DNA of 58,992 nucleotides, the filler included. It is 5 parts of 5 records of this genome, joined end to end, with 100 filler letters (N's around TTAATTAATTAA, not from the genome) between each part and the next. Parts side by side here need not be neighbours in the genome. Positions count along the whole stretch, not along the records: positions 33,576 to 53,097 come from SRR2962707_5028; 4 more parts are not named here. One strand, given 5' to 3'. A model generated the notes under the pieces. The model was not told the DNA's origin. It worked only from the letters and a program-made list of their open reading frames with translations, and did no database searches. Position numbers and translations under genes: made by a program. Below are positions 33,476-49,851 of this stretch, one piece after another (position 1 is the stretch's first letter; each line of letters starts with the position of its first letter).

Positions 33476-33575
33476 NNNNNNNNNNNNNNNNNNNNNNNNN
33501 NNNNNNNNNNNNNNNNNNNTTAATTAATTAANNNNNNNNNNNNNNNNNNNNNNNNNNNNNNNNNNNNNNNNNNNN
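33476..33575. other. Artificial contig spacer
   Basis: N44-TTAATTAATTAA-N44. Confidence 0.97.
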
Positions 33576-33822: not shown

Positions 33823-33866
33823 GTAACATCTGTTACCGAAAATCAAATCAATTCCTTGTATTTTTG
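33823..33866 (+). promoter_or_regulatory. Regulon site 1: GTAAC-ATCT-GTTAC (33823-33836) + 22 nt + TATTTTTG (-7 box, 33859-33866)
   Basis: Counted directly; upstream of the DUF983-crp/fnr pair. Confidence 0.8.
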
Positions 33867-33890
33867 CCTAAAATTTAGGTAGGCTTTCAA

Positions 33891-34289
33891 TTGAAGAAGA
33901 CAAAATTATATAGCATCTTATTCCTAAAATGTCCACAGTGCCGTCAAGGGGAATTTCTGGAGGGACATCCTTATAGACTTTCAAATGTGAATAAAGTAAG
34001 GGAATGCTGTCCAAAATGTAAGTTAAAATATCATATAGAACCAAGCTTTTATACCGGGTCTATGTATGTTTCTTATGGCGTTGGTATTGCGGTGGCTGTG
34101 GCAGCTTATGTGCTTACGCTCATATTTGGTTTGGATTTCGGTCCAACAGGAATAATGCTAAGTATTGTCGCCGCGTTGCTTATTACAATGCCCTACATAG
34201 GAGCAGTTTCAAAATCCATTTGGGCGCACCTATTTTTAAAATTTAATGCAGAAATAGCCAAAAAGGTAAGCGATGATTCAAGAACTTAA
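33891..34289 (+). CDS. DUF983-like zinc-ribbon membrane protein
   Basis: CPQC...CPKC, EPSFYTGSMYVSY and two TM helices; TTG start. Confidence 0.8.
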   Translation: MKKTKLYSILFLKCPQCRQGEFLEGHPYRLSNVNKVRECCPKCKLKYHIEPSFYTGSMYVSYGVGIAVAVAAYVLTLIFGLDFGPTGIMLSIVAALLITMPYIGAVSKSIWAHLFLKFNAEIAKKVSDDSRT

Positions 34290-34899
34290 AAAATATTATG
34301 GCTCACTATTTGAACTTGCACTTTTGGAAGAAATCAACCAAGTTGGTACTTTTATGGAAGTTCCGGAAGGACAAGACTTAATGAAACCAGGGCAATACAT
34401 AAAGTCAATACCTTTACTATTGTCTGGTAGTATCAAAATTATGCGACCTGATGGCGATGGTGATGAATTGTTGCTTTATCATCTTGAAAAAGGTGACACC
34501 TGTGCAATGACAATGAGTTGCTGCATCGGAAATGCCAAAAGTGAAATACACGCTGTGTCTGAAACGGACATTAAACTTCTAATGGTCCCTGTAGGTATGA
34601 TGGAAGAATGGTCTCGCAAATACAAGTCTTGGCGAAACTTTGTTTTTTCTAGCTATCACGCACGTATGATGGAAATGCTTGAAAGTATTGATAATATTGC
34701 ATTTAATAATATGGATGAACGTTTGGAAAACTATATTCAAAATAAAATTGTCCTAATTAACAGTAAGCATATCTATACAACCCATAAGGAAATTGCTTCA
34801 GATTTACATACTAGCCGTGTCGTAGTTTCTAGACTACTCAAAAAAATGGAAATCAGTAAAAAAATAAAATTACACCGTAGTTTTATTGAAGTCCTGTAA
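34273..34899 (+). CDS. Crp/Fnr family transcriptional regulator
   Basis: cNMP-binding-like barrel (LLSGSIKI, LLLYHLEKGDTCA), C-helix, HTH THKEIASDLHTSRVVVSRLLKK. Confidence 0.92.
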   Translation: MIQELKKYYGSLFELALLEEINQVGTFMEVPEGQDLMKPGQYIKSIPLLLSGSIKIMRPDGDGDELLLYHLEKGDTCAMTMSCCIGNAKSEIHAVSETDIKLLMVPVGMMEEWSRKYKSWRNFVFSSYHARMMEMLESIDNIAFNNMDERLENYIQNKIVLINSKHIYTTHKEIASDLHTSRVVVSRLLKKMEISKKIKLHRSFIEVL

Positions 34900-34939
34900 C
34901 ATCGGTTACCAAACTTGTTTAATATGCCCTTTACATTTG
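34896..34939 (+). promoter_or_regulatory. Regulon site 2: GTAAC-ATCG-GTTAC (34896-34909) + 22 nt + TACATTTG (34932-34939)
   Basis: Counted directly; overlaps the crp/fnr stop codon and lies upstream of tauE. Confidence 0.8.
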
Positions 34940-34950
34940 TTCTATCATTA

Positions 34951-34970
34951 GATAGATAGATAGATAGATA
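34951..34970 (+). repeat. (GATA)5 simple sequence repeat 1 nt before the tauE ATG
   Basis: Direct reading of the sequence. Confidence 0.9.
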
Positions 34971-34971
34971 A

Positions 34972-35778
34972 ATGGACATTATAGAAATTTTCGGTTATGC
35001 AGGTGCGCTATTTATTGGGATTGTGTTAGGATTGATAGGTGGTGGTGGTTCAATCTTAACTGTGCCCATTTTGGTTTATGCCTTATCATTTAATCCAGTA
35101 ATTGCTACAGCATACTCATTATTTGTAGTGGGTACAACTTCACTCGTAGGAGCACTTAAAAATATGATGAAGGGTAAGGTAGATTTCAAAACCGCTATCA
35201 TTTTTGCCGTTCCCGCTTTTACAGCTGTATATTTAACAAGAGCTTATTTAATCCCTGTAATTCCAGAACGACTTTTTGAAGTTAATGATTTTATGGTCAC
35301 AAAAAATTTGGCTATTATGCTATTTTTTGCCATTATAATGCTTTTGGCATCCATTACTATGATTCGCAATGGAAATCGGCAACTTAATACCGAAATAGTT
35401 GAAAAAAAATCTAATCACCTCTTGTTGATGGTGCAGGGTTTTTTCATTGGAATTGTAACTGGAATGGTTGGCGCAGGAGGTGGGTTTTTAATTATTCCGG
35501 CATTGGTCCTTTTGGCCAAATTACCGATGAAAAAAGCGGTGGCCACCTCTCTTTTTATAATTGCTATTAATTCATTGATAGGATTTTTGGGAGATGTACA
35601 AAACTATGATATAGACTGGTTGTTTTTGCTGCTATTTACTTCAATATCAGTAGTGGGTATATTTATAGGCATTTGGCTTAATAAATTTATAGATGGTAAA
35701 AAACTTAAAAAGGCATTTGGCTGGTTTGTGCTTCTAATGGGAATTTATATTATATACAAGGAAATTTCCAATCAATAG
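34972..35778 (+). CDS. Sulfite exporter TauE/SafE family protein
   Basis: LGLIGGGGSILTVP and GMVGAGGGFLIIPAL repeats, KKAVATSL, multiple TM helices. Confidence 0.9.
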   Translation: MDIIEIFGYAGALFIGIVLGLIGGGGSILTVPILVYALSFNPVIATAYSLFVVGTTSLVGALKNMMKGKVDFKTAIIFAVPAFTAVYLTRAYLIPVIPERLFEVNDFMVTKNLAIMLFFAIIMLLASITMIRNGNRQLNTEIVEKKSNHLLLMVQGFFIGIVTGMVGAGGGFLIIPALVLLAKLPMKKAVATSLFIIAINSLIGFLGDVQNYDIDWLFLLLFTSISVVGIFIGIWLNKFIDGKKLKKAFGWFVLLMGIYIIYKEISNQ

Positions 35779-35780
35779 CA

Positions 35781-36656
35781 ATGGGGAAATACATTGACAT
35801 AATAGAGCGTTCTTTTTCAGGTTACTTCAATTACCTAATTAAGGAAATTTCCAATCCCTCTTGGACTAATTATTTTTATTGGTTATTAGGTCTTTCTATT
35901 CTTGTGTTTTTATTTGAAATCATCGTTCCTTGGCGTAAGAAACAGTCAGTCATTAGAAAAGGGTTTTGGCTCGATACTTTTTACATCCTCTTTAATTTTT
36001 TCCTGTTTTCATTAATTGGTTACAACGCTCTTTCAAATGTAGGGGTCGAATTATTTAATGACTGCTTGGGCATATTTGGCATCAAAAATATTGTTGCAGT
36101 AGAAGTACAGGATTTTCCTGTATGGATGCAGCTTTTTATTATGTTCATAGTAGCAGATTTTGTGCAATGGAATGTGCACAGAATGCTGCATCGGGTTCCG
36201 TGGATGTGGAAATTCCATAAAGTGCACCACAGCGTAAAGGAAATGGGTTTTGCTGCTCAATTTCGATTTCATTTTTTGGAAACTATCGTATATAAATCCA
36301 TTCAATACATTCCTTTGGCAATGATAGGTTTTGGTATTGAACAATTTTTTGTTGTACATATGTTTACTGTTTTTGTTGGGCATCTTAATCACGCAAATCT
36401 CGACTGGAGCTATGGGAAATTTGGTTATATATTCAACAATCCTCGAATGCATATTTGGCATCACGCCAAAGCATTACCAGCTGAACGCCCTTACGGAATG
36501 AACTTTGGGCTTACCTTGAGTATTTGGGATTACCTGTTCGGGACTGCATACGTTCCTGACAGTGGCCGTGATATCGAATTGGGGTTTGAAGATGACGCTA
36601 ACTTTCCTAATACTTTTATAAAACAAATGAAGTATCCCTTCAAAAAAGATAAGTAG
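35781..36656 (+). CDS. Sterol desaturase / fatty acid hydroxylase superfamily membrane di-metal enzyme
   Basis: His boxes HRMLH, HKVHHS, HLNHAN and HIWHH; NFG...IWDYLFGT. Confidence 0.88.
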   Translation: MGKYIDIIERSFSGYFNYLIKEISNPSWTNYFYWLLGLSILVFLFEIIVPWRKKQSVIRKGFWLDTFYILFNFFLFSLIGYNALSNVGVELFNDCLGIFGIKNIVAVEVQDFPVWMQLFIMFIVADFVQWNVHRMLHRVPWMWKFHKVHHSVKEMGFAAQFRFHFLETIVYKSIQYIPLAMIGFGIEQFFVVHMFTVFVGHLNHANLDWSYGKFGYIFNNPRMHIWHHAKALPAERPYGMNFGLTLSIWDYLFGTAYVPDSGRDIELGFEDDANFPNTFIKQMKYPFKKDK

Positions 36657-36657
36657 C

Positions 36658-36701
36658 GTAACAATGGTTACTGACAAACAGAAAAATCTCTTATAATTTT
36701 A
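36658..36701 (+). promoter_or_regulatory. Regulon site 3: GTAAC-AATG-GTTAC (36658-36671) + 22 nt + TAATTTTA (36694-36701)
   Basis: Counted directly; upstream of the first persulfide dioxygenase-rhodanese gene. Confidence 0.8.
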
Positions 36702-36790
36702 AATCTATAATTCCCGCTCAAGTTTATGTTTAATGCAGTTGAATTGCGAAAGCATAATTTAAAATAGCGATAACTTAAAACATAAAAATT

Positions 36791-38209
36791 ATGAAAATAG
36801 AACAGATTTACACAGGGTGTTTGGCACAAGGTGCCTATTATATTGAAAGCAAGGGAGAAGTGGCTATTATTGACCCATTGCGCGAAGTGCAACCTTACAT
36901 AGACAAAGCTGAAGCGGCTGGTGCAAAAATCAAATATATTTTTGAAACCCACTTTCACGCTGATTTTGTCTCGGGACACGTTACCCTTTCAGAAAAAACC
37001 GATGCAACTATCATTTATGGGCCAAAAGCAAATCCAAATTTTGAAGCCACTACAGCAAAAGATGGACAGGAATTCAAACTGGGCGAACTGACATTTATCG
37101 TGCTTCACACACCAGGACACACAATGGAAAGTACCACTTATTTATTGAGGGATAAAGATGGGAAAAATCACGCCTTGTTTACAGGTGATACATTATTTCT
37201 TGGAGATGTAGGACGACCAGACCTGGCACAAAAGGCTGCATATATGACCCAAGAGCAACTTGCAGAAACGCTATACGATAGCCTTCGTAATAAAATTATG
37301 CCGCTTGCAGATGATATAATGGTATATCCGGCTCACGGTGCAGGTTCAGCCTGTGGTAAAAATATGATGAAGGAAACTGTCGATACTTTGGGACACCAAA
37401 AAGAAATGAACTATGCCTTACGTGCTGATATGACCAAGGAAGAGTTTGTAAGGGAAGTGACTGATGGGTTGTTACCGCCACCAGCATATTTCCCTATGAA
37501 TGTAAAAATGAACAAAGAAGGTTATAAAAATATAAACGAAGTTATCGCTCAAGGCGAAAATGCGCTAGCACCAGATGTTTTTGAAGCCGTAGCCAACGAA
37601 ACAGGAGCTGTGGTGCTGGATGTAAGGCACCAAAACGATTTTGCAAAAGGGCATATTCCAGGGTCAATTTTTATAGGTATTGACGGAAGCTTTGCACCTT
37701 GGGTGGGCGATTTGATAAAAGATGTAAAGCAACCCATCTTGTTGATTGCCGATAAAGACCGTATCGAAGAAACCATCACAAGATTATCGCGTGTCGGGTT
37801 TGATAATACCATTGGATATTTAGAGGGTGGTTTTGAAGCTTGGAAAAAATCTGCAAAGGAATATGATACAGTCACTTCCATTCCCGCAAGTGAATTCAAA
37901 CAAATTGAAGATGATACTCGGAATGATGTTCCAGTATTTGATGTAAGAAAGCCTTCCGAGTTTCAAAGCGAACACGTGCTCAACGCAAACAATACATCTT
38001 TATCAACTATAAACGACCATTTGGCAGAATATCCGAAAAACGAAACCTTTTATGTGCATTGTGCTGGAGGCTATCGAAGTATGATTGCGGCCTCTATTTT
38101 AAAAAGCCGTGGCATCCATAATTTAATTGATATCCAAGGTGGCTTTACTGCCATAAAAGATGCAGGCGTTGAAACTACAGAATATGTGTGTCCATCAACA
38201 TTGAAATAA
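36791..38209 (+). CDS. MBL-fold persulfide dioxygenase fused to two rhodanese domains (CstB-like)
   Basis: ETHFHADFVSG, TPGHT, TGDTLF.GDVGRPDL, PAHGAGSACG; C-terminal rhodanese active loop HCAGGYRS. Confidence 0.88.
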   Translation: MKIEQIYTGCLAQGAYYIESKGEVAIIDPLREVQPYIDKAEAAGAKIKYIFETHFHADFVSGHVTLSEKTDATIIYGPKANPNFEATTAKDGQEFKLGELTFIVLHTPGHTMESTTYLLRDKDGKNHALFTGDTLFLGDVGRPDLAQKAAYMTQEQLAETLYDSLRNKIMPLADDIMVYPAHGAGSACGKNMMKETVDTLGHQKEMNYALRADMTKEEFVREVTDGLLPPPAYFPMNVKMNKEGYKNINEVIAQGENALAPDVFEAVANETGAVVLDVRHQNDFAKGHIPGSIFIGIDGSFAPWVGDLIKDVKQPILLIADKDRIEETITRLSRVGFDNTIGYLEGGFEAWKKSAKEYDTVTSIPASEFKQIEDDTRNDVPVFDVRKPSEFQSEHVLNANNTSLSTINDHLAEYPKNETFYVHCAGGYRSMIAASILKSRGIHNLIDIQGGFTAIKDAGVETTEYVCPSTLK

Positions 38210-38235
38210 ATATCATCTTCAAAGAAAAGACAAAA

Positions 38236-38858
38236 ATGAACAGTACAAAGGAAATAGATCGCAAACAACATTGGGAAAAAGTGTATGAAACCAAAAATCC
38301 CGACCAAGTAAGTTGGACCCAAGAAAAGCCCATAACATCATTGGATTTTTTAGATTCTTTTATGTTAGATAAAGATGCTAAAATAATTGATGTAGGTGGT
38401 GGAGACAGTAAGTTGGTAGACTATTTACTTCTGGAAGGATATAGTGATATAACCATTCTTGATATTTCAGCCAAAGCTTTGGAAAAAGCAAAGGCTAGGC
38501 TTAGGGATAAATCCAAAAAAATCAAATGGATAACAGTGATATTATCGATTTTAAACCTACAGAAACGTATGATGTTTGGCACGATAGAGCGACTTTTCAT
38601 TTTCTTACATCAACACAAGAGCGCGATAAATATTTACAACTTGTAAAAAGATATGTTACCCATCATTTAATAATTGGAACATTTTCGAAAGATGGACCGG
38701 AAAAATGCAGCGGACTAAAAATTAAACAGTATTGTGAGCAGGAGCTTAAAGAGTTTTTTAGCGATGATTTTGAAAAAATCACTTGCTTAAATAATAATCA
38801 TATAACACCATTTAATAAGTTACAAAACTTTCTTTTTTGTAGCTTCAAAAAGAAATGA
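38236..38858 (+). pseudogene. Class I SAM-dependent methyltransferase split by a frameshift near 38533
   Basis: IIDVGGGDS motif in one frame; DIIDF..YDVWHDRATFHFL continues in another frame. Confidence 0.75.
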
Positions 38859-38859
38859 A

Positions 38860-39453
38860 TCAAAACATTTTCTGAAGCACCAGCGTGGTCATCGCTCGTT
38901 CATCTTTAACATTGGTTGTTTTAATAGGTTCTATCAACTCAATATTAAATTCAGTTATTAAATCAGCAATACGTTCGCGAGTGAGATAGTAGTTGCCTTT
39001 TTTTCCATTGTCTTTGAAGATAATTTCAGGGGCATTGCCATCCAAACCTATATTTGATGCCATCCTAATGAGCAGCATTCCATCAGGTTTCAGCACGCGG
39101 ATTAATTCTGAAAACATAGCCGTAAAATGGGTTCCACTTTCTGCGAAATGCAATACAGCACAACATAAAATGTGGTCAAAACTGTTTTCGTCGTAAGGCA
39201 AATCATCTAATGTTCCTGTGATAAAATTGCCTTCCGTTTTTGGGTATTGCGCTTTCGCAAAAGAGAGAAATTCTGCATCTGCATCTATTCCAAATATCTC
39301 ATAATCGTTTTGATAAAACCACTTCAGGTTTCGCCCTTTTCCACAACCAGCATCTAAGATAGATTGCCCATTTTGATATTGACCTTTTAAAATTTGGTCG
39401 ATTACATAAATATCAACGTTTCCCAATGCGTCAAAAGTGGTTTTGTAATCCAT
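38860..39453 (-). CDS. Class I SAM-dependent methyltransferase
   Basis: ILDAGCGKGRN, FDHILCCAVLHF and VLKPDG motifs. Confidence 0.9.
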   Translation of the reverse strand: MDYKTTFDALGNVDIYVIDQILKGQYQNGQSILDAGCGKGRNLKWFYQNDYEIFGIDADAEFLSFAKAQYPKTEGNFITGTLDDLPYDENSFDHILCCAVLHFAESGTHFTAMFSELIRVLKPDGMLLIRMASNIGLDGNAPEIIFKDNGKKGNYYLTRERIADLITEFNIELIEPIKTTNVKDERAMTTLVLQKMF

Positions 39454-39506
39454 AAAATCCTTGATTTAATGTTTCTGCAAGATATCTAAAATTATTCCTT
39501 CTTTGT

Positions 39507-39550
39507 GTAACGCTTGTTACCGTCATTGGTTAGGGGTATCCATATTTTTA
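39507..39550 (+). promoter_or_regulatory. Regulon site 4: GTAAC-GCTT-GTTAC (39507-39520) + 22 nt + TATTTTTA (39543-39550)
   Basis: Counted directly; upstream of the peroxiredoxin gene. Confidence 0.8.
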
Positions 39551-39574
39551 TATCACAATATAAACATAAGCACT

Positions 39575-40237
39575 ATGGATAATACAACAATTGAAAATAA
39601 TGTGACTTCTATGCCTCGAATAGGCGATAAGGCACCCGATTTTAAAGCGAAAACAACTAAAGGGGATATGCAAATGGCTGAATTTGCAAAAGATAAATGG
39701 ATTGTGATGTTCTCGCACCCTGCAGATTTTACACCTGTGTGCACAACTGAAATGAGTGGCTTTGCAGTTCGTAAAGATGAATTTACCGCACTCAATACAG
39801 AATTGCTGGGATTAAGCATCGACAGCATTCACTCGCATTTGGGATGGGTAAACAACGTAAGAGAGAAAACCGGTGTCTATTTTGATTTCCCAATCATTGC
39901 AGATATTGATATGAAGGTGTCAAAACTCTATGGAATGCTACAACCCAATGAGAGCGAAACCGCAGCCGTACGCGCTGTTTTCTTTATAGACCCAAAAAAG
40001 AAAATACGCTTGATAATGTACTACCCGCTAAACGTAGGTAGAAATATGGATGAGATTTTGAGAGCACTGGAAGCCTTACAGGTTTCAGATGAACATAAGG
40101 TCGCAATGCCATTAGATTGGAAAAAGGGTGATAAGGTTATCGTGCCACCGCCAAAAACATTGGATGAAATGAATGCAAGAATTGCAGATGATAGCTGTGA
40201 GAAAGTAGATTTCTATCTCGCCAAAAAATCATTGTAA
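39575..40237 (+). CDS. Peroxiredoxin (Prx6-type)
   Basis: FSHPADFTPVCTTE, YYP..VGRNMDEILR; start moved to ATG 39575, downstream of the promoter. Confidence 0.92.
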   Translation: MDNTTIENNVTSMPRIGDKAPDFKAKTTKGDMQMAEFAKDKWIVMFSHPADFTPVCTTEMSGFAVRKDEFTALNTELLGLSIDSIHSHLGWVNNVREKTGVYFDFPIIADIDMKVSKLYGMLQPNESETAAVRAVFFIDPKKKIRLIMYYPLNVGRNMDEILRALEALQVSDEHKVAMPLDWKKGDKVIVPPPKTLDEMNARIADDSCEKVDFYLAKKSL

Positions 40238-40273
40238 TCAACAAAATTAGTTTTTAGTTAAGGTTGGTTAGTG

Positions 40274-40304
40274 AAAAAGCGGCGAGTAATCGTCGCTTTT
40301 TTTT
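40274..40304 (+). terminator. Intrinsic terminator after the peroxiredoxin gene
   Basis: AAAAAGCGGCGA-GTAA-TCGTCGCTTTTTTTT. Confidence 0.75.
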
Positions 40305-40312
40305 GTATTACT

Positions 40313-40356
40313 GTAACATAGGTTACTAACTTCTTATAGTTACATCCTTAAATTGG
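40313..40356 (+). promoter_or_regulatory. Regulon site 5: GTAAC-ATAG-GTTAC (40313-40326) + 22 nt + TAAATTGG (40349-40356)
   Basis: Counted directly; upstream of the rhodanese-cbb3 operon. Confidence 0.75.
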
Positions 40357-40370
40357 TAGAGAGTGAAACA

Positions 40371-40745
40371 ATGAATAAAATCCTATTAATCATAATAATT
40401 ATGAGCAGTCTATTCGGCGCAAAGGCGTAACAAAATAATACTATAGAAATCCTATCATCTTCAGAGTTTAATGAAGCCATTTCAAATGATAACATCCAAT
40501 TGGTTGATGTGCGTACGGAGAAAGAATTTAAAGAAGGCGCCATAGAAGGGGCTTTAAATATAGATTTCTTTAAGCAGGACAATTTCACTGAAGAATTCAA
40601 CAAGTTAGATAAAAAAGAACCTATCTATCTCTACTGTCGTTCAGGGAATCGAAGCCAACAAGCCGCTGCAAAGTTGCAGGAAATGGGGTTTACAAAAATC
40701 TATGATTTACGGGGAGGTTATATGGGTTGGCCATTTAAAAAATAA
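40371..40745 (+). pseudogene. Exported single-domain rhodanese with an in-frame TAA at 40428-40430
   Basis: MNKILLIIIIMSSLFGAKA*QNN.. continues in frame to LVDVRT..EF..G.I.GA.NI and YCRSGNRS. Confidence 0.8.
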
Positions 40746-40749
40746 GATT

Positions 40750-40965
40750 ATGGACAATACACTTGTAATTTGGGCACTGGTAATTGCCTTCTTGGTTCTA
40801 GCTTTCGTGGGCGTGTATATATATCGATTACGATTAGTGGCAGATGAGTATGAAGAGCTAAAAAGACTCTCCAGCCATAATTTAAAAGATAAGATATCCC
40901 GTTTTTTAGATAAGATGGACAGCAAGCAATTAGACATCTTGAATAAGGCCTTAAATAAGAAATAA
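40750..40965 (+). CDS. Small single-TM hypothetical protein upstream of ccoN
   Basis: ATG 40750, hydrophobic N-terminus, tight operon spacing. Confidence 0.55.
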   Translation: MDNTLVIWALVIAFLVLAFVGVYIYRLRLVADEYEELKRLSSHNLKDKISRFLDKMDSKQLDILNKALNKK

Positions 40966-40979
40966 TAAGAACTACTAAC

Positions 40980-42818
40980 GTGAGGAAATCAATATTTTAT
41001 AGCATTCTCTTTTTAATGATACCCTCAATGGTATTGGCTCAAGAGCAGACCCCTGATGAAGTATCATTATGGAGTTCGCCAGGAGTATTGATAACCATAG
41101 TACTTATAGCTATTCCTATGATTTTAGGAATTATCATTCTTACGATGAAATCGTATAGGATTGCAAAGCAAATTAGAAATAAGGAAACTCTCAAACAGGC
41201 CAAAATTTTAGCAGAAGAAATTGTTAGAAACAAGGCCAGCTTAAATCCGGAACAAATAGCAGAGAAAAAACGACGACTGGAATATAAATTGTCAAATGCG
41301 GAACTTTCTGGAAAGCAACCCGCAAAGGATGTTCGCGGTTTAATACAGAACCCTACCAATGAATTGATTAATTCATTCTTTGCCAGAAAGAGCCAACCAC
41401 CCAAGCGTCCTAAAATAGATAAAAACCTGACAAAGCTGGTGCTTTGGTTTTTGGGTTCTGCCATATTCTGGTTGTTGTTGGGAACGAGTGTTGGTGAATA
41501 TTTAGGCATTAAATTTCTTGTACCTGATGCGGATTCAGTAAGTTGGTTAAGTTTTGGGCGTTTGCGTCCTGTACATACAAATCTGGTCTTTTGGGGATGG
41601 TCTTCCCTTGCAATGTTAGGGTTGGGATATTATACAGTACCACGAGTGGGTAACACGAGTATCGCCAGTTTAAAATTAGGATGGTATTCGCTCTATTTTA
41701 TAAACGCATCCCATATCATTGGTACAATTTCGTTGATGGCAGGAATAAACAATGGTGGTGGCGAATATCGCGAATATATCTGGCCGGTAATGTTGTTGTT
41801 TGTTATTGGTTTAATGTTGAGTCTTTTCAATTATTACAAGACTGTAGCCATTAGGAAAACCAAAGAAATTTACATATCAAACTGGTATATAATAGCAGCT
41901 GTTATCTTCATTAACATCATTGCTGTAGTATCGTATCTTCCTTTTTGGCAAGATGGACTTGGAGAAACCATTATACAAGGGTATTATATGCACCAGGCCG
42001 TAGGGCTTTGGTTTATGATGTTTGTATTGGGGCTGTTATATTATTTTCTTCCCCAGCAATTAAATAAACCCATTTATTCGTATAGTTTGGGCATATTGGC
42101 ATTTTGGACGCAAATTTTGTTCTATACCCTAATTGGCACGCACCATTTCGTATTTAGTTCCCTGCCTTGGTGGTTGCAAACCGTTGCAATTGTGGGTAGT
42201 GTGGGTATGTTGATACCCGTTGCGGCAGGAACAATAAACTTTTTGATGACTTTCAAAGGTTCTTGGAACAAGGTGGCCAGTAGTTACTCTCTACCTTTTT
42301 TCCTTGTTGGGGTTATTTATTATTTCACAGGCTCGCTTCAAGGGACTGCGGAAGCGTTTAGGTTTACCAATCTATTATGGCATTTTACTGATTTTACCAT
42401 AGCACATTCCCACATCACAATGTATGGGATTATAACATTTACCCTGTTTGCAGGCGTCTATGCTATTGTACCAAGATTGACAGGCAAGGAACCGACCCAA
42501 CTATGGGTAGGAGCACACTTCTGGATGGCCTTGGTAGGGCTTCAATTTTATACAATACCTCTTATGATAGGTGGGACGCTCAAAGGACTTTCTTGGGGAG
42601 ATGGAGAACCTTTTATAAACTCTGTAGTATTGATGGAGCCTTATTGGCTATGGCGTGCCATAGGCGGGACATTGATGTGGTTATCCCATATTGTATTTGC
42701 CTATAATTTCTATAAAATGGTACGAGTGGAAAAAGAAGTTGATATCCATGAAGTGACATTGCAGTTATTGCAAAACGACAATAAGGAAAGTGAAATTGAA
42801 GAAGACCTAAAGACATAG
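40980..42818 (+). CDS. ccoN: cbb3-type (C-family) heme-copper oxidase subunit I with N-terminal extension
   Basis: FGRLRPVHTN, YYMHQAVGLW, YYFLP...KPIYSY, FYTLIGTHHF (helix VII Tyr) and AHSH ligand motifs. Confidence 0.85.
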   Translation: MRKSIFYSILFLMIPSMVLAQEQTPDEVSLWSSPGVLITIVLIAIPMILGIIILTMKSYRIAKQIRNKETLKQAKILAEEIVRNKASLNPEQIAEKKRRLEYKLSNAELSGKQPAKDVRGLIQNPTNELINSFFARKSQPPKRPKIDKNLTKLVLWFLGSAIFWLLLGTSVGEYLGIKFLVPDADSVSWLSFGRLRPVHTNLVFWGWSSLAMLGLGYYTVPRVGNTSIASLKLGWYSLYFINASHIIGTISLMAGINNGGGEYREYIWPVMLLFVIGLMLSLFNYYKTVAIRKTKEIYISNWYIIAAVIFINIIAVVSYLPFWQDGLGETIIQGYYMHQAVGLWFMMFVLGLLYYFLPQQLNKPIYSYSLGILAFWTQILFYTLIGTHHFVFSSLPWWLQTVAIVGSVGMLIPVAAGTINFLMTFKGSWNKVASSYSLPFFLVGVIYYFTGSLQGTAEAFRFTNLLWHFTDFTIAHSHITMYGIITFTLFAGVYAIVPRLTGKEPTQLWVGAHFWMALVGLQFYTIPLMIGGTLKGLSWGDGEPFINSVVLMEPYWLWRAIGGTLMWLSHIVFAYNFYKMVRVEKEVDIHEVTLQLLQNDNKESEIEEDLKT

Positions 42819-42820
42819 CT

Positions 42821-43840
42821 ATGGATATATTCAGCAATCATAAAAGACTCTTTCTATTAGTGATACTGTTATTCGGTACGCTTACTGTTTTCGTGGCTAT
42901 TTTCCCTGCTTTAAACAACCAATACAGCTACGAACCCTTACCCGATTCTATACCCTTGACCGAAATAGAACAGCGTGGTAAAATGGTATATATTGGCAAT
43001 GGCTGTGTTGCCTGCCACACGCAACAGGTGCGTAATGTGGAAATAGATAAGGTTTGGGGAAGCCGCCCCAACGTCGCAGCGGATTATGCAGGTATAGAAC
43101 GGACTAATTTCTGGGTAAATACGGCCACCTTAATGGGCACAGAAAGAACAGGTCCCGACTTGACCAATATAGGAAAAAGACAACCAAGCGAAGATTGGCA
43201 TTTAACACACCTTTACCAGCCAAGAGCAGTAGTAGAAAATTCAGTTATGGCACCTTACCCTTGGTTATTTGAACTTAAGGATTCTATCAAGATTACGGAA
43301 AAGGACAAAATAGTCAATCTACCAGCTAGATACATCAAGGACAAAAGCAAAAAGGTAGTCGCCACCGAAGATGCCATTGCACTGGTCGCCTATTTAAAAT
43401 CACTGCAACAGGTTAAACTTCCAGATGGAACGCCTAGCCCAGAATTTTTATACAAAAGGGAACAGAAAAAACATGGAGCTAACGAATCTGGAGGTTCTTC
43501 CGCTTTAGACGGAGCAGAATTATATACCAATTATTGCGCCAGTTGCCACCAAACCGATGGCAAAGGGGTTAGCGGTGCGTTCCCACCATTGGACGGAAGT
43601 GCCATCGTGCAGGGCATAGACCCAACCTCTATGGTCAATATCATAATGTATGGCTATAATGCAAGGGAAGAATACGGCGAAATGCCCGCAATCGGCCAAA
43701 TTAATGACCTATCGCTAGAAGAATTGGTTGCATTGATGAACCACGAACGTACCAGTTGGAGCAATGACGCACCTGAAGTAAGCCTAGAAGAAATCAATAA
43801 AATTCTGGAAGAACTTAAAAAGCAGAACGAAAATCAATGA
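42821..43840 (+). CDS. ccoO: cbb3-type oxidase subunit II fused to a second cytochrome c domain
   Basis: GCVACHTQQVR, G.ERTGPDL, SVMAPYPWL; second CASCH with FPPL and MP motifs. Confidence 0.85.
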   Translation: MDIFSNHKRLFLLVILLFGTLTVFVAIFPALNNQYSYEPLPDSIPLTEIEQRGKMVYIGNGCVACHTQQVRNVEIDKVWGSRPNVAADYAGIERTNFWVNTATLMGTERTGPDLTNIGKRQPSEDWHLTHLYQPRAVVENSVMAPYPWLFELKDSIKITEKDKIVNLPARYIKDKSKKVVATEDAIALVAYLKSLQQVKLPDGTPSPEFLYKREQKKHGANESGGSSALDGAELYTNYCASCHQTDGKGVSGAFPPLDGSAIVQGIDPTSMVNIIMYGYNAREEYGEMPAIGQINDLSLEELVALMNHERTSWSNDAPEVSLEEINKILEELKKQNENQ

Positions 43841-44103
43841 TTATGAAAAAAGGACATTTTTTAATTGTGACATTGTTATTGCCTTTAGCCGCTATGGCCT
43901 GCCCAGAATGTGAACGCAGTCAACCTGGAATATTGAAAGGTATTGGACACGGTGCAGGACCACAACAGCAATGGGATTACGTCATTGTAATTCTAACATC
44001 CATTATAGTCCTTATATCTCTTTATTATTCCATAAAATGGATTATAAAACCAGGAGAAACAAAACCATCGCACATCAAGCGTAAAATATTGAATTTTGAC
44101 TAA
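43837..44103 (+). CDS. Small membrane protein with CPEC motif, in the cbb3 cluster
   Basis: Signal-like N-terminus, ACPECE, one TM helix; overlaps ccoO stop. Confidence 0.65.
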   Translation: MIMKKGHFLIVTLLLPLAAMACPECERSQPGILKGIGHGAGPQQQWDYVIVILTSIIVLISLYYSIKWIIKPGETKPSHIKRKILNFD

Positions 44104-44506
44104 GACAATGGAAAGCAATAAGGTCATAATATTTTTGGATGAAGAGCCAATACCTATTGGAGAATATGAGGTGCCTATAAATTTTGAACTCGACACAACC
44201 AAAATGGTGGATGGCGAGCATACTTTAAAAATTATCAGTAAAGACCCTTATGGCAAAGAGGGTATTAAGAAAGTAGATTTTATAGTGCGTAATGGCCCAG
44301 CTATCGATATTGACGGTATAAAACAAAATGCAATTGTAGATGGTAAAGTGCCCGTTATGATTAACGCTTATGGAAAAGGAGGAAAAAAACACTTTCTTAT
44401 TGAGGGAAGCGAAACTCCACAAAGCATACCCTCTTGGCTGTGGGCAGGGATAATCATATTTGCTGCTTGGGCAATTTACTACTTGATAACCTCATTAACT
44501 TTATAA
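44096..44506 (+). CDS. Hypothetical beta-rich protein with C-terminal TM anchor, in the cbb3 cluster
   Basis: LDTTKMVDGEHTLKI Ig-like segment and C-terminal hydrophobic helix; start may be ATG 44108. Confidence 0.65.
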   Translation: MTKTMESNKVIIFLDEEPIPIGEYEVPINFELDTTKMVDGEHTLKIISKDPYGKEGIKKVDFIVRNGPAIDIDGIKQNAIVDGKVPVMINAYGKGGKKHFLIEGSETPQSIPSWLWAGIIIFAAWAIYYLITSLTL

Positions 44507-44514
44507 ACTACACT

Positions 44515-44663
44515 ATGATTGACAAAGAAGTTTATCATAAAATTGAGAAAGAGGTACATAATAATGATAGCCCTTTAGGTATCGACCCAACAAAACACAT
44601 ATCACCATCATAAAGAAGTTTATACTAATAGAAGAACGATTAATAAATCTAGAAAATAAATAA
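44515..44663 (+). pseudogene. Possible frameshifted small ORF (about 49 aa)
   Basis: MIDKEVYHKIEKEVHNNDSPLGIDPTK, then a shifted frame THITIIKKFILIEERLINLENK* ending 1 nt before the next ATG. Confidence 0.45.
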
Positions 44664-44664
44664 A

Positions 44665-44937
44665 ATGAAAACAACACTTAAATTACAAAACATTAAATGT
44701 GGCGGCTGTACAAATGGCATTGCTGTTCGGCTACTGAAGTTATCAGGTATAAATAACGTGCAGGTAAGCGATGAGACTTCAGAGGTCAGTTTTAGCTATG
44801 AAACCGTAAATGACCTTGCCATAGCAGAACGAATGCTTACACAAATGGGCTATCCACCAGAAGGTGTTGATAATACAGTCGTAAATAAGGCAAAATCTCT
44901 TATAAGCTGTGCGACAGGAAAATTGAACATTGCTTAA
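44665..44937 (+). CDS. Heavy-metal-associated (HMA, CopZ-like) domain protein
   Basis: NIKCGGC motif and GY at the end of the HMA fold. Confidence 0.85.
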   Translation: MKTTLKLQNIKCGGCTNGIAVRLLKLSGINNVQVSDETSEVSFSYETVNDLAIAERMLTQMGYPPEGVDNTVVNKAKSLISCATGKLNIA

Positions 44938-44979
44938 ATTAGTACACTTGATGCGAGCCAGCCAATAGTTGGTTAGGTT

Positions 44980-45010
44980 AAGGGGCAGACTATTAAGGTC
45001 TGCCCTTTTT
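44980..45010 (+). terminator. Intrinsic terminator
   Basis: AAGGGGCAGAC-loop-GTCTGCCCTTTTT followed by a long T tract. Confidence 0.75.
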
Positions 45011-45043
45011 CTTTTTTTCTTTTTTTTCGAAATGTTGACTTCT

Positions 45044-45087
45044 GTAACAGGGGTTACCTTTTTCTCTCGTTGCATACTATATTTTTG
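45044..45087 (+). promoter_or_regulatory. Regulon site 6: GTAAC-AGGG-GTTAC (45044-45057) + 22 nt + TATTTTTG (45080-45087)
   Basis: Counted directly; upstream of the DUF2490 gene. Confidence 0.8.
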
Positions 45088-45106
45088 GCTAAACAAACAT
45101 TTATAG

Positions 45107-45817
45107 ATGAGATATAGTTTACTAATAGGTCTCTTGTTTTTTGTAGGGACTACAAGAGCACAACAGGAGCAATTTGAGCACAGTAGCAGTTGGAACACCT
45201 TCACAGTTAAGGCAGCTATAAATGAAAATTGGTTTGTAAAATCTGAATTCAATTTTAGACGTACAAATTTTCTTCAAGATTGGGAACAGTTTGTACTACG
45301 GCCTTCAATTCAGCACAAGGTCAATCCATTTATTACAGTTGGCATAGGTTATACATTTATTCAAAATTATTCTTATTCAGAGTTTTCAACACCCATAGAT
45401 ACGCAAGAAAACAATCTTTGGCAGCAATTATTTATCAAACAGCCATTTCATTCATTTACCTTATCTCATAGGTTACGATTTGAAGAGCGCTTTCAAGATA
45501 AAATAGCTACAATAGAGGACCACTCTGAAATTACAGGCAGTAATTATGGCAATAGATTACGTTATCGATTTATTATAGAGGTACCAGTTTTTAAAAAGCC
45601 CAAAATTTCAGTTTTGGCTTACGATGAAGTATTTCTTGATTTTAAAAAAAGACTACAGCCCAAAAAACTAGACCAAAACTGGATGTTTCTCGGTTTACGC
45701 TTTCAGGAAAATGAGTATATTACTATCACATCAGGATATCATTATATTAATATCCCGAGAACTGAAATCGTTATCAATAACCATATTTGGGAAACCTCTG
45801 TAATGTTTACACTATAA
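45107..45817 (+). CDS. DUF2490-like outer-membrane beta-barrel protein
   Basis: Signal peptide (TRA|Q), ENNLWQQ, HRLRFEERF, RLRYR, YDEVF and DQN motifs. Confidence 0.8.
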   Translation: MRYSLLIGLLFFVGTTRAQQEQFEHSSSWNTFTVKAAINENWFVKSEFNFRRTNFLQDWEQFVLRPSIQHKVNPFITVGIGYTFIQNYSYSEFSTPIDTQENNLWQQLFIKQPFHSFTLSHRLRFEERFQDKIATIEDHSEITGSNYGNRLRYRFIIEVPVFKKPKISVLAYDEVFLDFKKRLQPKKLDQNWMFLGLRFQENEYITITSGYHYINIPRTEIVINNHIWETSVMFTL

Positions 45818-45848
45818 AGATTATAGCGAATAGTAAATCCTAATTTGT

Positions 45849-45892
45849 GTAACAAAGGTTACAAACTTTCAAATGTTCATCCTATATCTTTA
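45849..45892 (+). promoter_or_regulatory. Regulon site 7: GTAAC-AAAG-GTTAC (45849-45862) + 22 nt + TATCTTTA (45885-45892)
   Basis: Counted directly; upstream of sqr. Confidence 0.8.
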
Positions 45893-45914
45893 TTAGGATA
45901 AAAACTATACAACT

Positions 45915-47162
45915 ATGGCAACGCATCATCAAGTGCTTATCATTGGCGGCGGAACCGCTGGAATAATGACAGCATCACAGCTTATAACGCAAAAGAAAAC
46001 CAAAGATATCGCAATTATAGAACCAGCCGATACCCATTATTATCAGCCAGCTTGGACACTGGTAGGTGCTGGAACCTATGATTATGAAAAAACAGGAAAG
46101 CCAATGGCTGATGTAATGCCTAATGGCGCTAAATGGATTAAGGATAAAGCTACAGCTTTCGACCCAGAAAATAATTTGGTAAGTACAGCCAATTCTGGCA
46201 ATATCACGTATGATTATCTCGTGGTAGCATCAGGTCTTGCCTACGATTTTAGTCTCGTGTCCGGGTTGGGTGATGCAATTGATAAAGGTGTGGTGTGCAG
46301 CAACTATACAGACCCAAAGCACACGTGGGACGTTGTGAAGAATTTTAAAGGAGGTACTGCATTATTTACACAGCCTACAACGCCTATTAAATGCGGTGGG
46401 GCACCACAAAAAATTATGTACTTGGCCGAGAGCCATTGGGCGAAAAGCAAAACACGTTCAAAAACTGATGTTGTTTTTGCCACCGCCGGAACAGTAATTT
46501 TTGGCGTAAAGGAAATTGCTAAAACTTTAATGGAAGTTGTAGATAGAAAAGATATCAATTTACGTTTTGGGTATCAACTAAAGAAAATAGACGGAGCAAA
46601 TAAAATTGCTTGGTATTCATTTGCAGAGCACGAAAAAGAATATAACCATAAGAATGTGAAAATTGAAAAAGACGGGAATTTAACAGGTATTCATTATGAT
46701 ATGCTACATACCGCACCACCAAGTGTTGCACCAGATTTTGTAAGTAAATCAACTTTGGTAAACGAAGCGGGATGGTTGGATGTAGATAAGCACACAATGC
46801 AACACAATAGGTACGCAAATATTTTTGGTCTCGGCGATGTCGCCGGATTGCCCACTGCTAAAACCGGAGCAGCGATCAGAAAACAAGTGCCTGTGGTTGT
46901 GGATAACCTTGGCTTGCTTATCAACCACGATAAAATGGGGAATAAATCGTACAACGGCTACTCATCTTGCCCATTAGTTACCGATTATGGAAAAATGGTT
47001 TTGGCAGAATTTGATTATAACAATAATTTTACCCCTGATCCTAAACTTAAACAAATGTTTATTTCAGATAGTTCAAAAGAACATTGGCGTTTGTGGATGC
47101 TGAAAAAATACGGCCTTCCCTATCTATACTGGAATAAAATGTTAAAGGGTAAAGATGTATAG
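45915..47162 (+). CDS. sqr: Sulfide:quinone oxidoreductase (type II-like)
   Basis: GGGTAG FAD motif, HYYQPAWTLVG, catalytic cysteines in IKCGGAPQK and YSSCPLVT, AKTGAAIRKQ, LAEFDY. Confidence 0.9.
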   Translation: MATHHQVLIIGGGTAGIMTASQLITQKKTKDIAIIEPADTHYYQPAWTLVGAGTYDYEKTGKPMADVMPNGAKWIKDKATAFDPENNLVSTANSGNITYDYLVVASGLAYDFSLVSGLGDAIDKGVVCSNYTDPKHTWDVVKNFKGGTALFTQPTTPIKCGGAPQKIMYLAESHWAKSKTRSKTDVVFATAGTVIFGVKEIAKTLMEVVDRKDINLRFGYQLKKIDGANKIAWYSFAEHEKEYNHKNVKIEKDGNLTGIHYDMLHTAPPSVAPDFVSKSTLVNEAGWLDVDKHTMQHNRYANIFGLGDVAGLPTAKTGAAIRKQVPVVVDNLGLLINHDKMGNKSYNGYSSCPLVTDYGKMVLAEFDYNNNFTPDPKLKQMFISDSSKEHWRLWMLKKYGLPYLYWNKMLKGKDV

Positions 47163-47265
47163 CATTGGATAAACAGAAAACAAAAAAGCTTCTTATAGTA
47201 TGTGTGTTGTGTATCATTATAATAACTGCTGTGGTGCTATTTATTGAATTTTTAAACTAAATATT

Positions 47266-47469
47266 ATGAAAAAAAATATGGGCGGTGCAGACCGCATAAT
47301 TAGAATTATCATCGCTATTGTAATAGGTATCCTCTACTGGCAGGGTATCATAGAAGGAACCTTGGCTTATGTATTAATCGCAGTTGCGGCGGTTTTCCTG
47401 TTGACCAGCTTTGTGAGCTTTTGTCCATTATACAAATTAGTGGGTCTTAATACCTGTCCAAGAAAATAG
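47266..47469 (+). CDS. DUF2892 (YgaP-like membrane domain) small protein
   Basis: MKKNMG..DRIIR, two TM helices, FCPLY...GLNTC. Confidence 0.85.
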   Translation: MKKNMGGADRIIRIIIAIVIGILYWQGIIEGTLAYVLIAVAAVFLLTSFVSFCPLYKLVGLNTCPRK

Positions 47470-47488
47470 CTAGATAAATTGAACTTAT

Positions 47489-47532
47489 GTATCAAAGGTT
47501 ACAGCTATTTGCTGTAACCTTTTTTATTTTTA
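47489..47532 (+). promoter_or_regulatory. Regulon site 8: GTATC-AAAG-GTTAC (47489-47502, one mismatch) + 22 nt + TATTTTTA (47525-47532)
   Basis: Counted directly; upstream of the second persulfide dioxygenase-rhodanese gene. Confidence 0.7.
47494..47525 (+). terminator. Intrinsic terminator hairpin overlapping regulon site 8
   Basis: AAAGGTTACAGC-TATTT-GCTGTAACCTTT perfect 12-bp stem running into a T tract. Confidence 0.7.
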
Positions 47533-47548
47533 TATAAAATTTAAAATT

Positions 47549-48880: not shown

Positions 48881-48883
48881 ATT

Positions 48884-49363
48884 ATGGACACTAAAAACAA
48901 TAATAACATTGGTTTAAATATAGAAAAATCAAAAAAAGTAGCTGAAAATCTGAATGATTTACTTTCAAATTATCAATTGTTCTATATGAACTTGAGAGGG
49001 TTTCATTGGAACATCAAGGGGAAAAAATTCTTTGAATTGCACCTTAAATTTGAAGAGCTATATAATGACGCATTGATTAAGGTAGATGAAATTGCAGAAC
49101 GCATACTTACTTTAAGTGAAACGCCATTTCATTCCTTCAAAAAATATCTGGATACTACCGAAATAAAAGCTGCCGAAAACATAAAAGTTGGTGAAGAAGC
49201 AATTAATATAATTCTTGACGCTTTAAAAATCTTATTGGCAAAAGAACGAACGATATTAACTATGGCTTCCGAAGCAAATGATGAAGGTACTGTTGCTTTA
49301 ATGAGTGATTACATCGTTGAGCAAGAAAAATTGGTCTGGATGCTTTCATCCTATTTGGAATAA
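48884..49363 (+). CDS. dps: Dps family DNA protection / ferritin-like protein
   Basis: FHWNIKG..FFELHLKFEELY, DEIAERI and EK..WML motifs. Confidence 0.93.
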   Translation: MDTKNNNNIGLNIEKSKKVAENLNDLLSNYQLFYMNLRGFHWNIKGKKFFELHLKFEELYNDALIKVDEIAERILTLSETPFHSFKKYLDTTEIKAAENIKVGEEAINIILDALKILLAKERTILTMASEANDEGTVALMSDYIVEQEKLVWMLSSYLE

Positions 49364-49392
49364 AAACCAACCATTTTATTAGTTAAAAGCTA

Positions 49393-49845: not shown

Positions 49846-49851
49846 GGAACT

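Follow-up and report, generated by a model that had tools for sequence, protein, structure and literature searches.

The stretch of DNA examined here raises the question of how a block of sulfide-oxidation genes could be switched on together. The window, by which we mean the whole stretch of 58,992 nt, carries between positions 33823 and 47532 a sulfur-oxidation island in which a 14-bp palindrome, GTAAC-N4-GTTAC, recurs ahead of successive gene units, each time at a fixed distance from a Bacteroidota -7 promoter box. The initial annotation of this DNA had proposed that a single Crp/Fnr activator sits on the -33 region and drives all of these units including the one that holds its own gene. All computational tests that we ran agree with this proposal, and the best overall explanation, which we consider likely to be correct, is that the Crp/Fnr protein encoded at 34273-34899 switches on the sulfide-oxidation promoters through the 14-bp operator. 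Control of these promoters by the protein is very probable; that it acts as an activator and responds to a sulfur-compound signal is, with somewhat less assurance, probable; the signal itself is the weakest link of the explanation. Sites, spacing, conservation, co-occurrence with the regulator and gene content were all obtained by computation.

In total, seven exact copies of GTAACNNNNGTTAC were identified in the window (promoters 1 to 7 in Table 1), against 0.02 expected by chance, and none of 100 dinucleotide shuffles reached this number. When one mismatch was allowed, for which the chance expectation is 1.06 matches, two further copies appeared. One of them, at 47489 (GTATC...GTTAC), is the palindrome of promoter 8; the other, at 31521, lies on a separate contig, has no box and was set aside as a chance match. 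All eight palindromes listed by the initial annotation were thus recovered, the last with its single mismatch, and in all eight cases TAnnTT(T/G)(G/A) follows after exactly 22 nt, with the boxes as originally quoted. No other site-plus-box combination was found outside 33.8-47.6 kb when both strands of the window were searched allowing two mismatches at most and a spacing between 20 and 24 nt. A scan for sigma-70-type promoters, which is uninformative for Bacteroidota, returned 71 matches vs 68.2 in shuffled sequences. Boxes were also noted on the reverse strand by the tauE site (at 23 nt in the window); these lie inside the regulator coding sequence and were rejected as a by-product of conserved C-terminal codons.

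Since promoter 1 is located upstream of the regulator's own operon, it is predicted to be autoregulatory. An orthologous site was found in the genome of Galbibacter orientalis DSM 19592 (G001) and in G016, G140 and G042, and many of the 30 loci that carry the DUF983-like gene have the site upstream of it. The palindrome at 39507 may serve in both directions, as its reverse reading is followed after 22 nt by a box, TATCTTGC, that faces the methyltransferase gene. G. orientalis has an equivalent divergent arrangement (TATATTGC, 23 nt ahead of the methyltransferase ATG). The box in the window is weak, and we list this ninth promoter as tentative.

The initial annotation had suggested a scan of Flavobacteriaceae for the site, the 22-nt spacer and the box as one unit. 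We screened 151 genomes from 150 genera with a 43-nt pattern (site, 22 N and TANNTTT) and found it in 109 of them, with 317 matches vs 8 for the reversed control. A search of the same genomes with the regulator protein (E <= 1e-25) gave a match in 129. The pattern was present in 107 of these regulator-positive genomes and missing from 22, while among the 22 regulator-negative genomes it was present in 2 and missing from 20; the two exceptions are assemblies of 73% and 83% completeness. The motif is hence not equally common in genomes without the regulator; the initial annotation had named an equal frequency there as a result that would refute its proposal. Two points do weigh against it: 22 of the 129 regulator-positive genomes have no exact site-plus-box, although 7 of those 22 are weak regulator matches (E > 1e-40), and the genomes are related to each other and not independent samples, so that the co-occurrence is given as counts. 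In a phylum-wide sample the pattern was found in 8 of 14 genomes of the same family, in the single genome from another family of the order not at all (0/1), in 6 of 35 genomes from other families of the class and in 6 of 151 from the rest of the phylum; the reversed control gave 7 matches overall. The outlying matches, where looked at, adjoin a regulator homologue or sulfur genes. G371 has a 42%-identical regulator together with SulP, a molybdenum enzyme, a persulfide dioxygenase (PDO) and YeeE by the site, and in G297 a glyoxalase-fold protein and DsrE are followed by a 36%-identical regulator. The order in G344 is 37%-identical regulator, site, thioredoxin, OsmC and a Cys/Met pyridoxal-phosphate enzyme, and in G181 a TauE gene lies by the site.

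The G. orientalis genome (4.5 Mb) shows the sites within a single genome. It contains 14 exact palindromes, of which 9 fall within 25 kb around a 97%-identical regulator, 1 lies by a 48%-identical paralogue and 4 are scattered. A gene-facing box at 22 nt accompanies 9 of the 10 regulator-associated palindromes, and none of the 4 scattered ones. For the tenth (61692) we found just a near-box, CATATTTG, facing a YeeE-like gene. The paralogue (L038, G001:C1:2450000-2456000) has the same C-x5-CC motif and RVVVSR helix as the island regulator; its gene is followed by an exact site, 22 nt and TACCTTTG, which head a split YeeE-tauE-pdo unit. As the two paralogues share one common operator, cross-talk between them is implied.

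These distributions also bear on whether the palindrome is the regulator's operator at all. It could instead be bound by another factor, or be a structural repeat such as part of a terminator placed between genes, and site 8 lends this some substance, since in addition to its mismatch its right half lies within a terminator-like hairpin (12 bp, 47494-47522, followed by a T run). Site 8 is in this respect also a point against the operator reading. However, it is the only one of the eight sites on a strong hairpin, and in G140 the hairpin weakens from -18.8 to -6.7 kcal/mol while the 14-mer of site 8, the 22-nt spacing and a box are all kept. Because of this conservation, and because exact sites precede pdo2 orthologues elsewhere, we accept site 8 as a predicted promoter lying partly on the terminator of the unit before it. 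The near absence of the pattern from genomes without the regulator (2/22), the direct adjacency of site and regulator gene in most loci, and the match of the regulator's recognition helix to GTA/TAC half-sites (see below) likewise argue against a role unrelated to the regulator, which we regard as highly improbable.

For the promoter geometry we used 80 loci that were picked by regulator homology alone, which avoids selection on the feature to be measured. Of the 131 exact palindromes in them, 108 are followed by TAnnTTT[GA] after precisely 22 nt on one or both sides. When every offset between 5 and 44 nt was counted, the box occurred 109 times at 22 nt, 25 times at 23 nt and at most three times at each other offset. 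A -33 TTTG element is found at its expected place in just 5 of these 109 promoters. The first T of the box lies 29.5 bp from the centre of the palindrome, and we infer that the site is centred at about -40.5 to -41.5, matching class II Crp/Fnr promoters; the value near -40.5 applies if the box is itself centred at -7. In E. coli, FNR activates class II promoters from a site that is centred at -41.5 and spans -48 to -35, with the -10 hexamer at -12 to -7; the 29.5 bp observed here equal the distance between the centre of the FNR site and the hexamer.

Fixed spacing, absent -33 element and site position together lead us to favour an activator over a repressor. A dimer would bind each site, stand in for the absent -33 element and recruit RNA polymerase, as FNR, CRP and NtcA do at class II promoters. 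Eight, perhaps nine, promoters would be activated together, and as the regulator's own operon is among them this would create positive feedback. Activation is the classical role of Crp/Fnr proteins bound at this position, and a fixed 22-nt spacing over 150 genera is typical of a stereo-specific activator contact, whereas the positions of repressor sites usually vary. Without a -33 TTTG (present in 5/109) the promoters should moreover be weak unaided. Repression over the -33 region, released by a sulfide-derived species as for CstR, SqrR and BigR, would nevertheless agree with the fact that the site covers the position of a would-be -33 element, and excerpts of a 2026 review describe most dedicated reactive-sulfur sensors as repressors that are released by cysteine modification. 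On balance we consider a repressor improbable.

The regulator itself scores 31.4 bits against the Pfam family cNMP_binding (cut-off 27.5) and 23.5 bits against HTH_Crp_2, which is under the cut-off of 27. An AlphaFold model built with 44 orthologues has a mean pLDDT of 86.5, and Foldseek matched it to 3dv8, CRP, FNR and NtcA at about 1e-13, so that the predicted structure places the protein in the Crp/Fnr superfamily; its best solved relatives are 3dv8, NtcA and CRP. In a profile alignment, the recognition helix R182-V183-V184-V185-S186-R187 is aligned with R180-E181-T182-V183-G184-R185 of CRP and with RVTVTR of NtcA. Because this is an NtcA-type R-V-x-V-x-R helix, it would fit a GTA-N8-TAC operator, which is present here as GTA-AC-N4-GT-TAC. 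The same alignment pairs C77 with I70 of CRP, M79 with E72, C83 with F76, C84 with E77, K89 with R82 and S90 with S83, which would put the three cysteines into the cassette that binds the cAMP phosphate in CRP. C77, C83, C84 and R182-V-V-x-S-R187 are invariant in the 44 sequences, which reach down to 49% identity and include Fluviicola and Chitinophagales. No N-terminal cysteine cluster of the FNR type was found in the protein, its only cysteines being C77, C83 and C84.

One published operator is identical to the palindrome, which the initial annotation had missed. GTAACnnnnGTTAC corresponds to the HcpR2 consensus given for Bacteroides, Clostridia, Thermotogales and Treponema in Rodionov et al. 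2005 (PMC1274295), and the island 14-mer is the same letter for letter. As described in that paper, HcpR2 is a Crp/Fnr branch located by hcp genes and also occurring in Bacteroidota, its predicted regulon consists of hcp only, and its specificity is tied to a proline at CRP position 181 (PMC1274295). The island protein could then be an HcpR2-type regulator of nitrosative stress, with the sulfur genes as a side branch of a nitric oxide response. We examined 12 hcp loci of other Bacteroidota and found an exact site before hcp in G214 and a one-mismatch site in G204. In the former, which belongs to another Bacteroidota family, hcp (L170, G214:C19:677488-682107) is preceded by GTAACAATTGTTAC, 22 nt and TAGCTTGG. 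Neither G214 nor G204, however, has a homologue of the island regulator at E <= 1e-8. The regulator furthermore has Val183 where HcpR2 has proline (E181 in CRP), invariant in the 44 orthologues, and many sulfur-gene promoters are found here vs hcp alone. A search for hcp (PF03063) found none in four of four regulon-bearing genomes and six of six Flavobacteriaceae of the phylum sample (nine distinct genomes, G001 being in both sets), with matches in the positive controls, and none of 96 site-adjacent genes is hcp. We therefore rejected membership in HcpR2; that the sulfur genes belong to a nitrosative-stress response is very improbable, and two Crp/Fnr branches appear to use one operator and one promoter geometry in Bacteroidota.

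The genes behind the sites were compiled from 25 relative loci and 20 scattered sites from 10 genomes, using BLAST against the window proteins and Pfam/NCBIfam for the unknowns. Several that recur are also present in the window, namely tauE, PDO-rhodanese genes, rhodanese, sqr, prx, the HMA gene and the pair of DUF983-like gene and regulator. Others recur behind sites and are not found in the window: split YeeE/YedE sulfur transporters, SulP permeases, thioredoxins, RND efflux pumps, a DoxX-DsrE-SoxB-like operon (255 bits to SoxB, under its cut-off), a SorA-like sulfite dehydrogenase with a cytochrome, an Fe-S/NrfD and molybdopterin enzyme nearest to thiosulfate/tetrathionate (Phs/Ttr-like) reductases, a cytochrome c/Tll0287-like protein and a di-haem (cytochrome c) peroxidase. 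In the congeneric genome G002, cytochrome bd (CydAB) stands behind a site (L051:5730-8146). Cytochrome bd is sulfide-resistant. Alternative terminal oxidases are predicted to be part of the regulon, a divergent C-family enzyme in the window and cytochrome bd in G002.

For 96 exact sites in 45 loci we determined the first downstream open reading frame (ORF), and in 83 of them it belongs to the sulfur/redox reference families. Of the remaining 13, eight have no ORF that the simple finder recognised (ATG starts only, within 260 nt) and five are unclassified, among them an M28 peptidase 209 nt from its site that we doubt is a target. PDO genes are the commonest first gene (18+2 of 96, some of them rhodanese-only proteins); sqr comes first in 9/96 and prx in 5/96. 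The conserved core reads regulator-[site]-tauE-PDO: tauE follows the regulator gene in 67 of the 80 loci, and in 52 of these 67 an exact site-plus-box lies between the two. Through these sites the regulator would switch on sulfide oxidation (SQR, sulfide:quinone oxidoreductase), persulfide removal (two PDO-rhodanese fusions and a rhodanese), sulfite export (TauE), thiol and peroxide protection (peroxiredoxin, Dps, HMA) and an alternative terminal oxidase. According to excerpts of the 2026 review, a reactive-sulfur sensor usually controls SQR, PDO, sulfurtransferases, TauE and YedE/YeeE, and a switch to sulfide-resistant respiration is described as well; judged by site placement, the predicted regulon matches this list. 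Some points count against so sulfur-specific a view. The reference families of the tally were drawn from the same loci, and most loci were chosen for having sites, although the Pfam names of the site-adjacent genes are independent of that choice. Peroxiredoxin, Dps, the terminal oxidases, DUF2490 and the fatty-acid hydroxylase are in addition not specific to sulfur and would fit a hypoxia or general redox response too.

With regard to the signal, sulfide-derived sulfane sulfur (persulfide or polysulfide) acting on C77, C83 and C84 seems the most likely candidate, and we give sensing by cysteine persulfidation or bridging slightly less than an even chance. Conservation beyond the close orthologues was assessed with a profile search of 1.84 billion representatives, which gave 409 clusters at E <= 1e-30; 142 full-length top matches were examined. 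C77 is present in 140 of the 142. Several observations weigh against a switch made of all three cysteines: they occur together in just 52 of the 142, distant homologues (31-42% identity) by sulfur genes keep C77 and often lose C83/C84, and the AlphaFold model is uncertain right at residues 80-83 (pLDDT < 50). Because C83 and C84 are lost in relatives, the triple-Cys motif cannot account for sensing by itself. The recognition helix divides the same 142 sequences, with valine at position 183 in 47 and glutamate in 89; the RV and RE helix types presumably have different operators, and the Val-183 triple-Cys proteins thus form one branch of a larger uncharacterised C77 family.

The same regulator and regulon could also respond to a signal other than cysteine persulfidation. 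One version invokes a cofactor, either Cys/Met-ligated haem of the CooA/HcpR type or an FNR-type Fe-S cluster, which would report sulfide or low oxygen; the other a small anion, sulfite or thiosulfate, held in the pocket like 2-oxoglutarate in NtcA. The near-universal C77 beside the dispensable C83/C84 speaks for such a signal, as does a loop 80-83 that is poorly modelled without a ligand. M79 is nearly invariant in the close orthologues, but is kept in just 62 of 142 members of the wider family. A long-helix arginine, R131, is retained in 124 of 142, and NtcA uses a long-helix arginine for 2-oxoglutarate. The core of regulator, tauE and pdo makes and exports sulfite, in line with an anion, although three invariant cysteines in 44 sequences exceed the need of an anion pocket. 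Oxidases, peroxiredoxin and Dps suit a redox or oxygen signal; against this, the regulon consists mainly of sulfur enzymes and not of typical anaerobic respiration genes, and the protein has no N-terminal FNR-type cluster, its first cysteine being C77; nor does the sequence itself reveal a cofactor. Taken together, a cofactor or anion signal appears rather unlikely.

If the persulfide reading is followed further, the protein would represent a fourth structural class of dedicated reactive-sulfur sensor, in which a Crp/Fnr scaffold has its cAMP pocket rebuilt as a C-x5-CC thiol switch activated by persulfide or polysulfide. We put this forward as a possibility that we hold with less than even confidence. 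Were it true, a class II activator at a Bacteroidota -7 promoter would turn on the pathway from sulfide to sulfite along with genes that handle sulfite and protect thiols, and the terminal oxidase would change as well. The system would be at work in most marine Flavobacteriaceae, with the translationally coupled, zinc-ribbon DUF983-like protein perhaps as a co-sensor.

Among characterised systems, NtcA is the second-best solved relative of the regulator (2xgx, E 7e-10 with the single sequence, 5e-14 with the profile), and the two have in common the R-V-x-V-x-R helix, GTA/TAC half-sites 8 nt apart and, as predicted here, a site centre about 41 bp upstream. The NtcA equivalog TIGR03697, however, gives the regulator 37.8 bits vs a cut-off of 244.95, its effector-pocket residues are C-x5-CC, the predicted regulon concerns sulfur oxidation and not nitrogen assimilation, and the partner element is a Bacteroidota -7 box and not a -10 hexamer. 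We know of no PipX-like partner for it. With E. coli FNR and CRP at class II promoters it shares the fold, a 14-bp 5-4-5 palindrome, the 22 bp to the downstream polymerase-contact element and a weak or absent upstream promoter element. It differs from both in its half-site sequence and in the Bacteroidota type of sigma factor and promoter, from FNR in having no N-terminal cysteine cluster, and from CRP in the replaced cAMP-contact residues (E72 to M79, R82 to K89). The best solved relative and top Foldseek match is 3dv8 (EUBREC_1222 of Eubacterium rectale; E 1e-12 with the single sequence, 2.7e-20 with the profile), which has cysteines aligned with C77 and C84. It comes from another phylum and from structural genomics with function unknown, its helix reads REVITR with glutamate at 181, and it has no known regulon.

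In its predicted targets the regulator resembles CstR (CsoR), SqrR/BigR (ArsR) and FisR (sigma-54), whose regulons, as far as the review excerpts cover them, comprise sqr, PDO-rhodanese, TauE, YeeE/YedE and sulfurtransferases. Further likenesses are the conserved cysteines as likely sensor and a regulator gene beside its targets. Unlike all of them it has a Crp/Fnr fold and occurs in Flavobacteriaceae; in contrast to repressors and sigma-54 enhancer-binding proteins, it probably activates transcription together with the housekeeping sigma factor. The regulator thus appears to work like NtcA and FNR and to serve a purpose like that of CstR, SqrR, BigR and FisR, while being a member of none of these groups. 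The excerpts of the 2026 review assign the dedicated sensors to the CsoR, ArsR and Fis superfamilies and refer to Crp only as a persulfidated Acinetobacter protein; those of a 2022 review hold no relevant Crp, Fnr or Bacteroidetes passage. Full-text literature searches, whose scope leaves out most subscription journals, likewise found no Crp/Fnr sulfide regulon, in accordance with the statement of the initial annotation that none was known to it from Flavobacteria. These results support a class II activator of the Crp/Fnr type whose sensory pocket and regulon are both new, which is widespread in marine Flavobacteriaceae and which, within the searches made, is undescribed in print.

Flavobacteriaceae are major marine degraders of algal and particle-bound organic matter and meet sulfide on particles and in sediments. 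Sulfide sensing in Bacteroidota is not covered by the known sensor families; the 2026 review excerpts list CsoR, ArsR and Fis only. A fixed operator would equal a computational marker of sulfide-responsive genes in most of the sampled genera (109/151 genomes). Several genes without an assigned role, encoding DUF2490, DUF983 and DUF2892 proteins, the fatty-acid hydroxylase and the divergent haem-copper oxidase, would be flagged by it as parts of a sulfide response. The system would also provide a defined case of class II activation for the -33/-7 promoters of Bacteroidota, an unusual type, and a candidate for a new thiol-switch design within a well-understood allosteric scaffold.

Table 1. Predicted promoters, genes and hairpins of the island (positions in the window; spacing from palindrome to -7 box).
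Feature	Coordinates	Strand	Details
Promoter 1	33823..33866	+	exact palindrome, 22 nt, TATTTTTG; heads DUF983-like gene and regulator gene
DUF983-like membrane protein	33891..34289	+	overlaps regulator gene by 17 nt
Crp/Fnr-family regulator	34273..34899	+	208 aa; cNMP-type beta-roll, C77-x5-C83-C84, helix SRVVVSR
Promoter 2	34896..34939	+	exact palindrome over regulator stop codon, 22 nt, TACATTTG; heads tauE and fatty-acid hydroxylase gene
tauE (sulfite exporter family) and fatty-acid hydroxylase/OlsE-like gene	34972..36656	+	
Promoter 3	36658..36701	+	exact palindrome, 22 nt, TAATTTTA; heads pdo1
pdo1 (persulfide-dioxygenase-type MBL and 2 rhodanese domains), then split methyltransferase	36791..38858	+	
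Possible ninth, divergent promoter	39477..39520	-	39507 palindrome read in reverse, 22 nt, TATCTTGC; faces methyltransferase gene 38860-39453
Promoter 4	39507..39550	+	exact palindrome, 22 nt, TATTTTTA; heads 1-Cys peroxiredoxin gene (likely ATG 39575)
1-Cys peroxiredoxin	39575..40237	+	289 bits, cut-off 211 bits
Terminator-like hairpin	40273..40302	+	13 pairs and T run; ends prx unit
Promoter 5	40313..40356	+	exact palindrome, 22 nt, TAAATTGG; heads rhodanese ... HMA unit; hairpin 40273-40302 precedes
Rhodanese (interrupted), 87-aa transmembrane (TM) protein, oxidase subunit I (CcoN-like), CcoO-cytochrome c fusion, two small ORFs, HMA/CopZ-like, in this order	40371..44937	+	
Terminator-like hairpin	44980..45008	+	12 pairs and T run; ends oxidase/HMA unit
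Promoter 6	45044..45087	+	exact palindrome, 22 nt, TATTTTTG; heads DUF2490 gene; hairpin 44980-45008 precedes
DUF2490 protein	45107..45817	+	
Promoter 7	45849..45892	+	exact palindrome, 22 nt, TATCTTTA; heads sqr and DUF2892/YgaP-TM gene
Sulfide:quinone oxidoreductase (nearest model type III SQR) and DUF2892/YgaP-like TM protein	45915..47469	+	
Promoter 8	47489..47532	+	1-mismatch palindrome (GTATC), 22 nt, TATTTTTA; heads pdo2, dps
pdo2 (MBL and rhodanese), Dps/ferritin-like, PEMT/ICMT-like and TehB-like methyltransferases	47549..50454	+	

The gene labels of the initial annotation were checked with Pfam and NCBIfam and hold, with reservations about the DUF983, rhodanese and cbb3 assignments. 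The DUF983 match falls just short of the Pfam cut-off (21.2 vs 22.6 bits). The protein has two predicted TM helices and four invariant cysteines in a zinc-ribbon pattern (C14-x2-C17 ... C40-x2-C43; L074, which has a stop in frame, was left out of the alignment). Its gene stands upstream of the regulator in 30 of the 80 loci, and it could be a membrane-bound partner or co-sensor of the regulator. The rhodanese frame of the promoter 5 unit (40371-40745) opens with a signal-peptide-like MNKILLIIIIMSSLFGAKA from ATG 40371 and is interrupted by a stop in frame at codon 20, after which comes the rhodanese domain with its active-site loop CRSGNRS. No intact long frame was found in G001 either; the gene is either broken or internally started. 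The protein labelled cbb3 is a divergent C-family haem-copper oxidase subunit I of 612 aa with a 150-aa N-terminal extension, encoded in the 40980-43840 region, which scores 250 bits vs the 583-bit cut-off of ccoN. The methyltransferase 3' of pdo1 occupies two overlapping frames (38188-38646 and 38526-38858, 152 and 110 aa), the result of a frameshift or a sequencing error. Two methyltransferase-like genes probably also belong to the promoter 8 unit. Beyond it, the region 50530-53097 holds a redoxin gene, a DDE transposase in two ORFs (DUF4372 and DDE_Tnp_1) and, at the contig end, the last 198 codons of a SoxB-like gene; at the corresponding place G001 has a full DoxX-DsrE-SoxB-like operon with its own site.

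The window consists of five contigs joined at 15825-15924, 24533-24632, 33476-33575 and 53098-53197 by paired 44-nt N runs around a stop-codon linker, ttaattaattaa. The island is the entire 19.5-kb contig 33576-53097, and its true flanks are therefore not visible in the window. Judged from G001, at least three further regulon promoters (DoxX operon, RND efflux and YeeE) are missing from the window. The assembly looks mixed. Contigs 1-3 have a G+C content of 41-59% and encode HrpA, EAL and hybrid-kinase proteins as well as a protein that carries four Myb repeats; the island contig (34-42%) and the last contig (about 40%, with RNase Y) are Bacteroidota-like. We therefore treated the island contig as Galbibacter-like DNA and took its wider context from G001, to which it is 95.0% identical over 33576-43933 and 99.99% over 43934-53097. 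G. orientalis is the sole near-identical match to the island. A recent transfer of the island between genera was considered, as the regulator is 95% identical in an Aequorivita record, and rejected, as the DNA is just 82% identical over 1.6 kb. Among sequencing runs, 99-100% of the words sampled from 33700-43600 were found in five runs (X1-X5) with five organism codes from two studies, and at least half of the words in 14 runs overall, including seawater and marine metagenomes.

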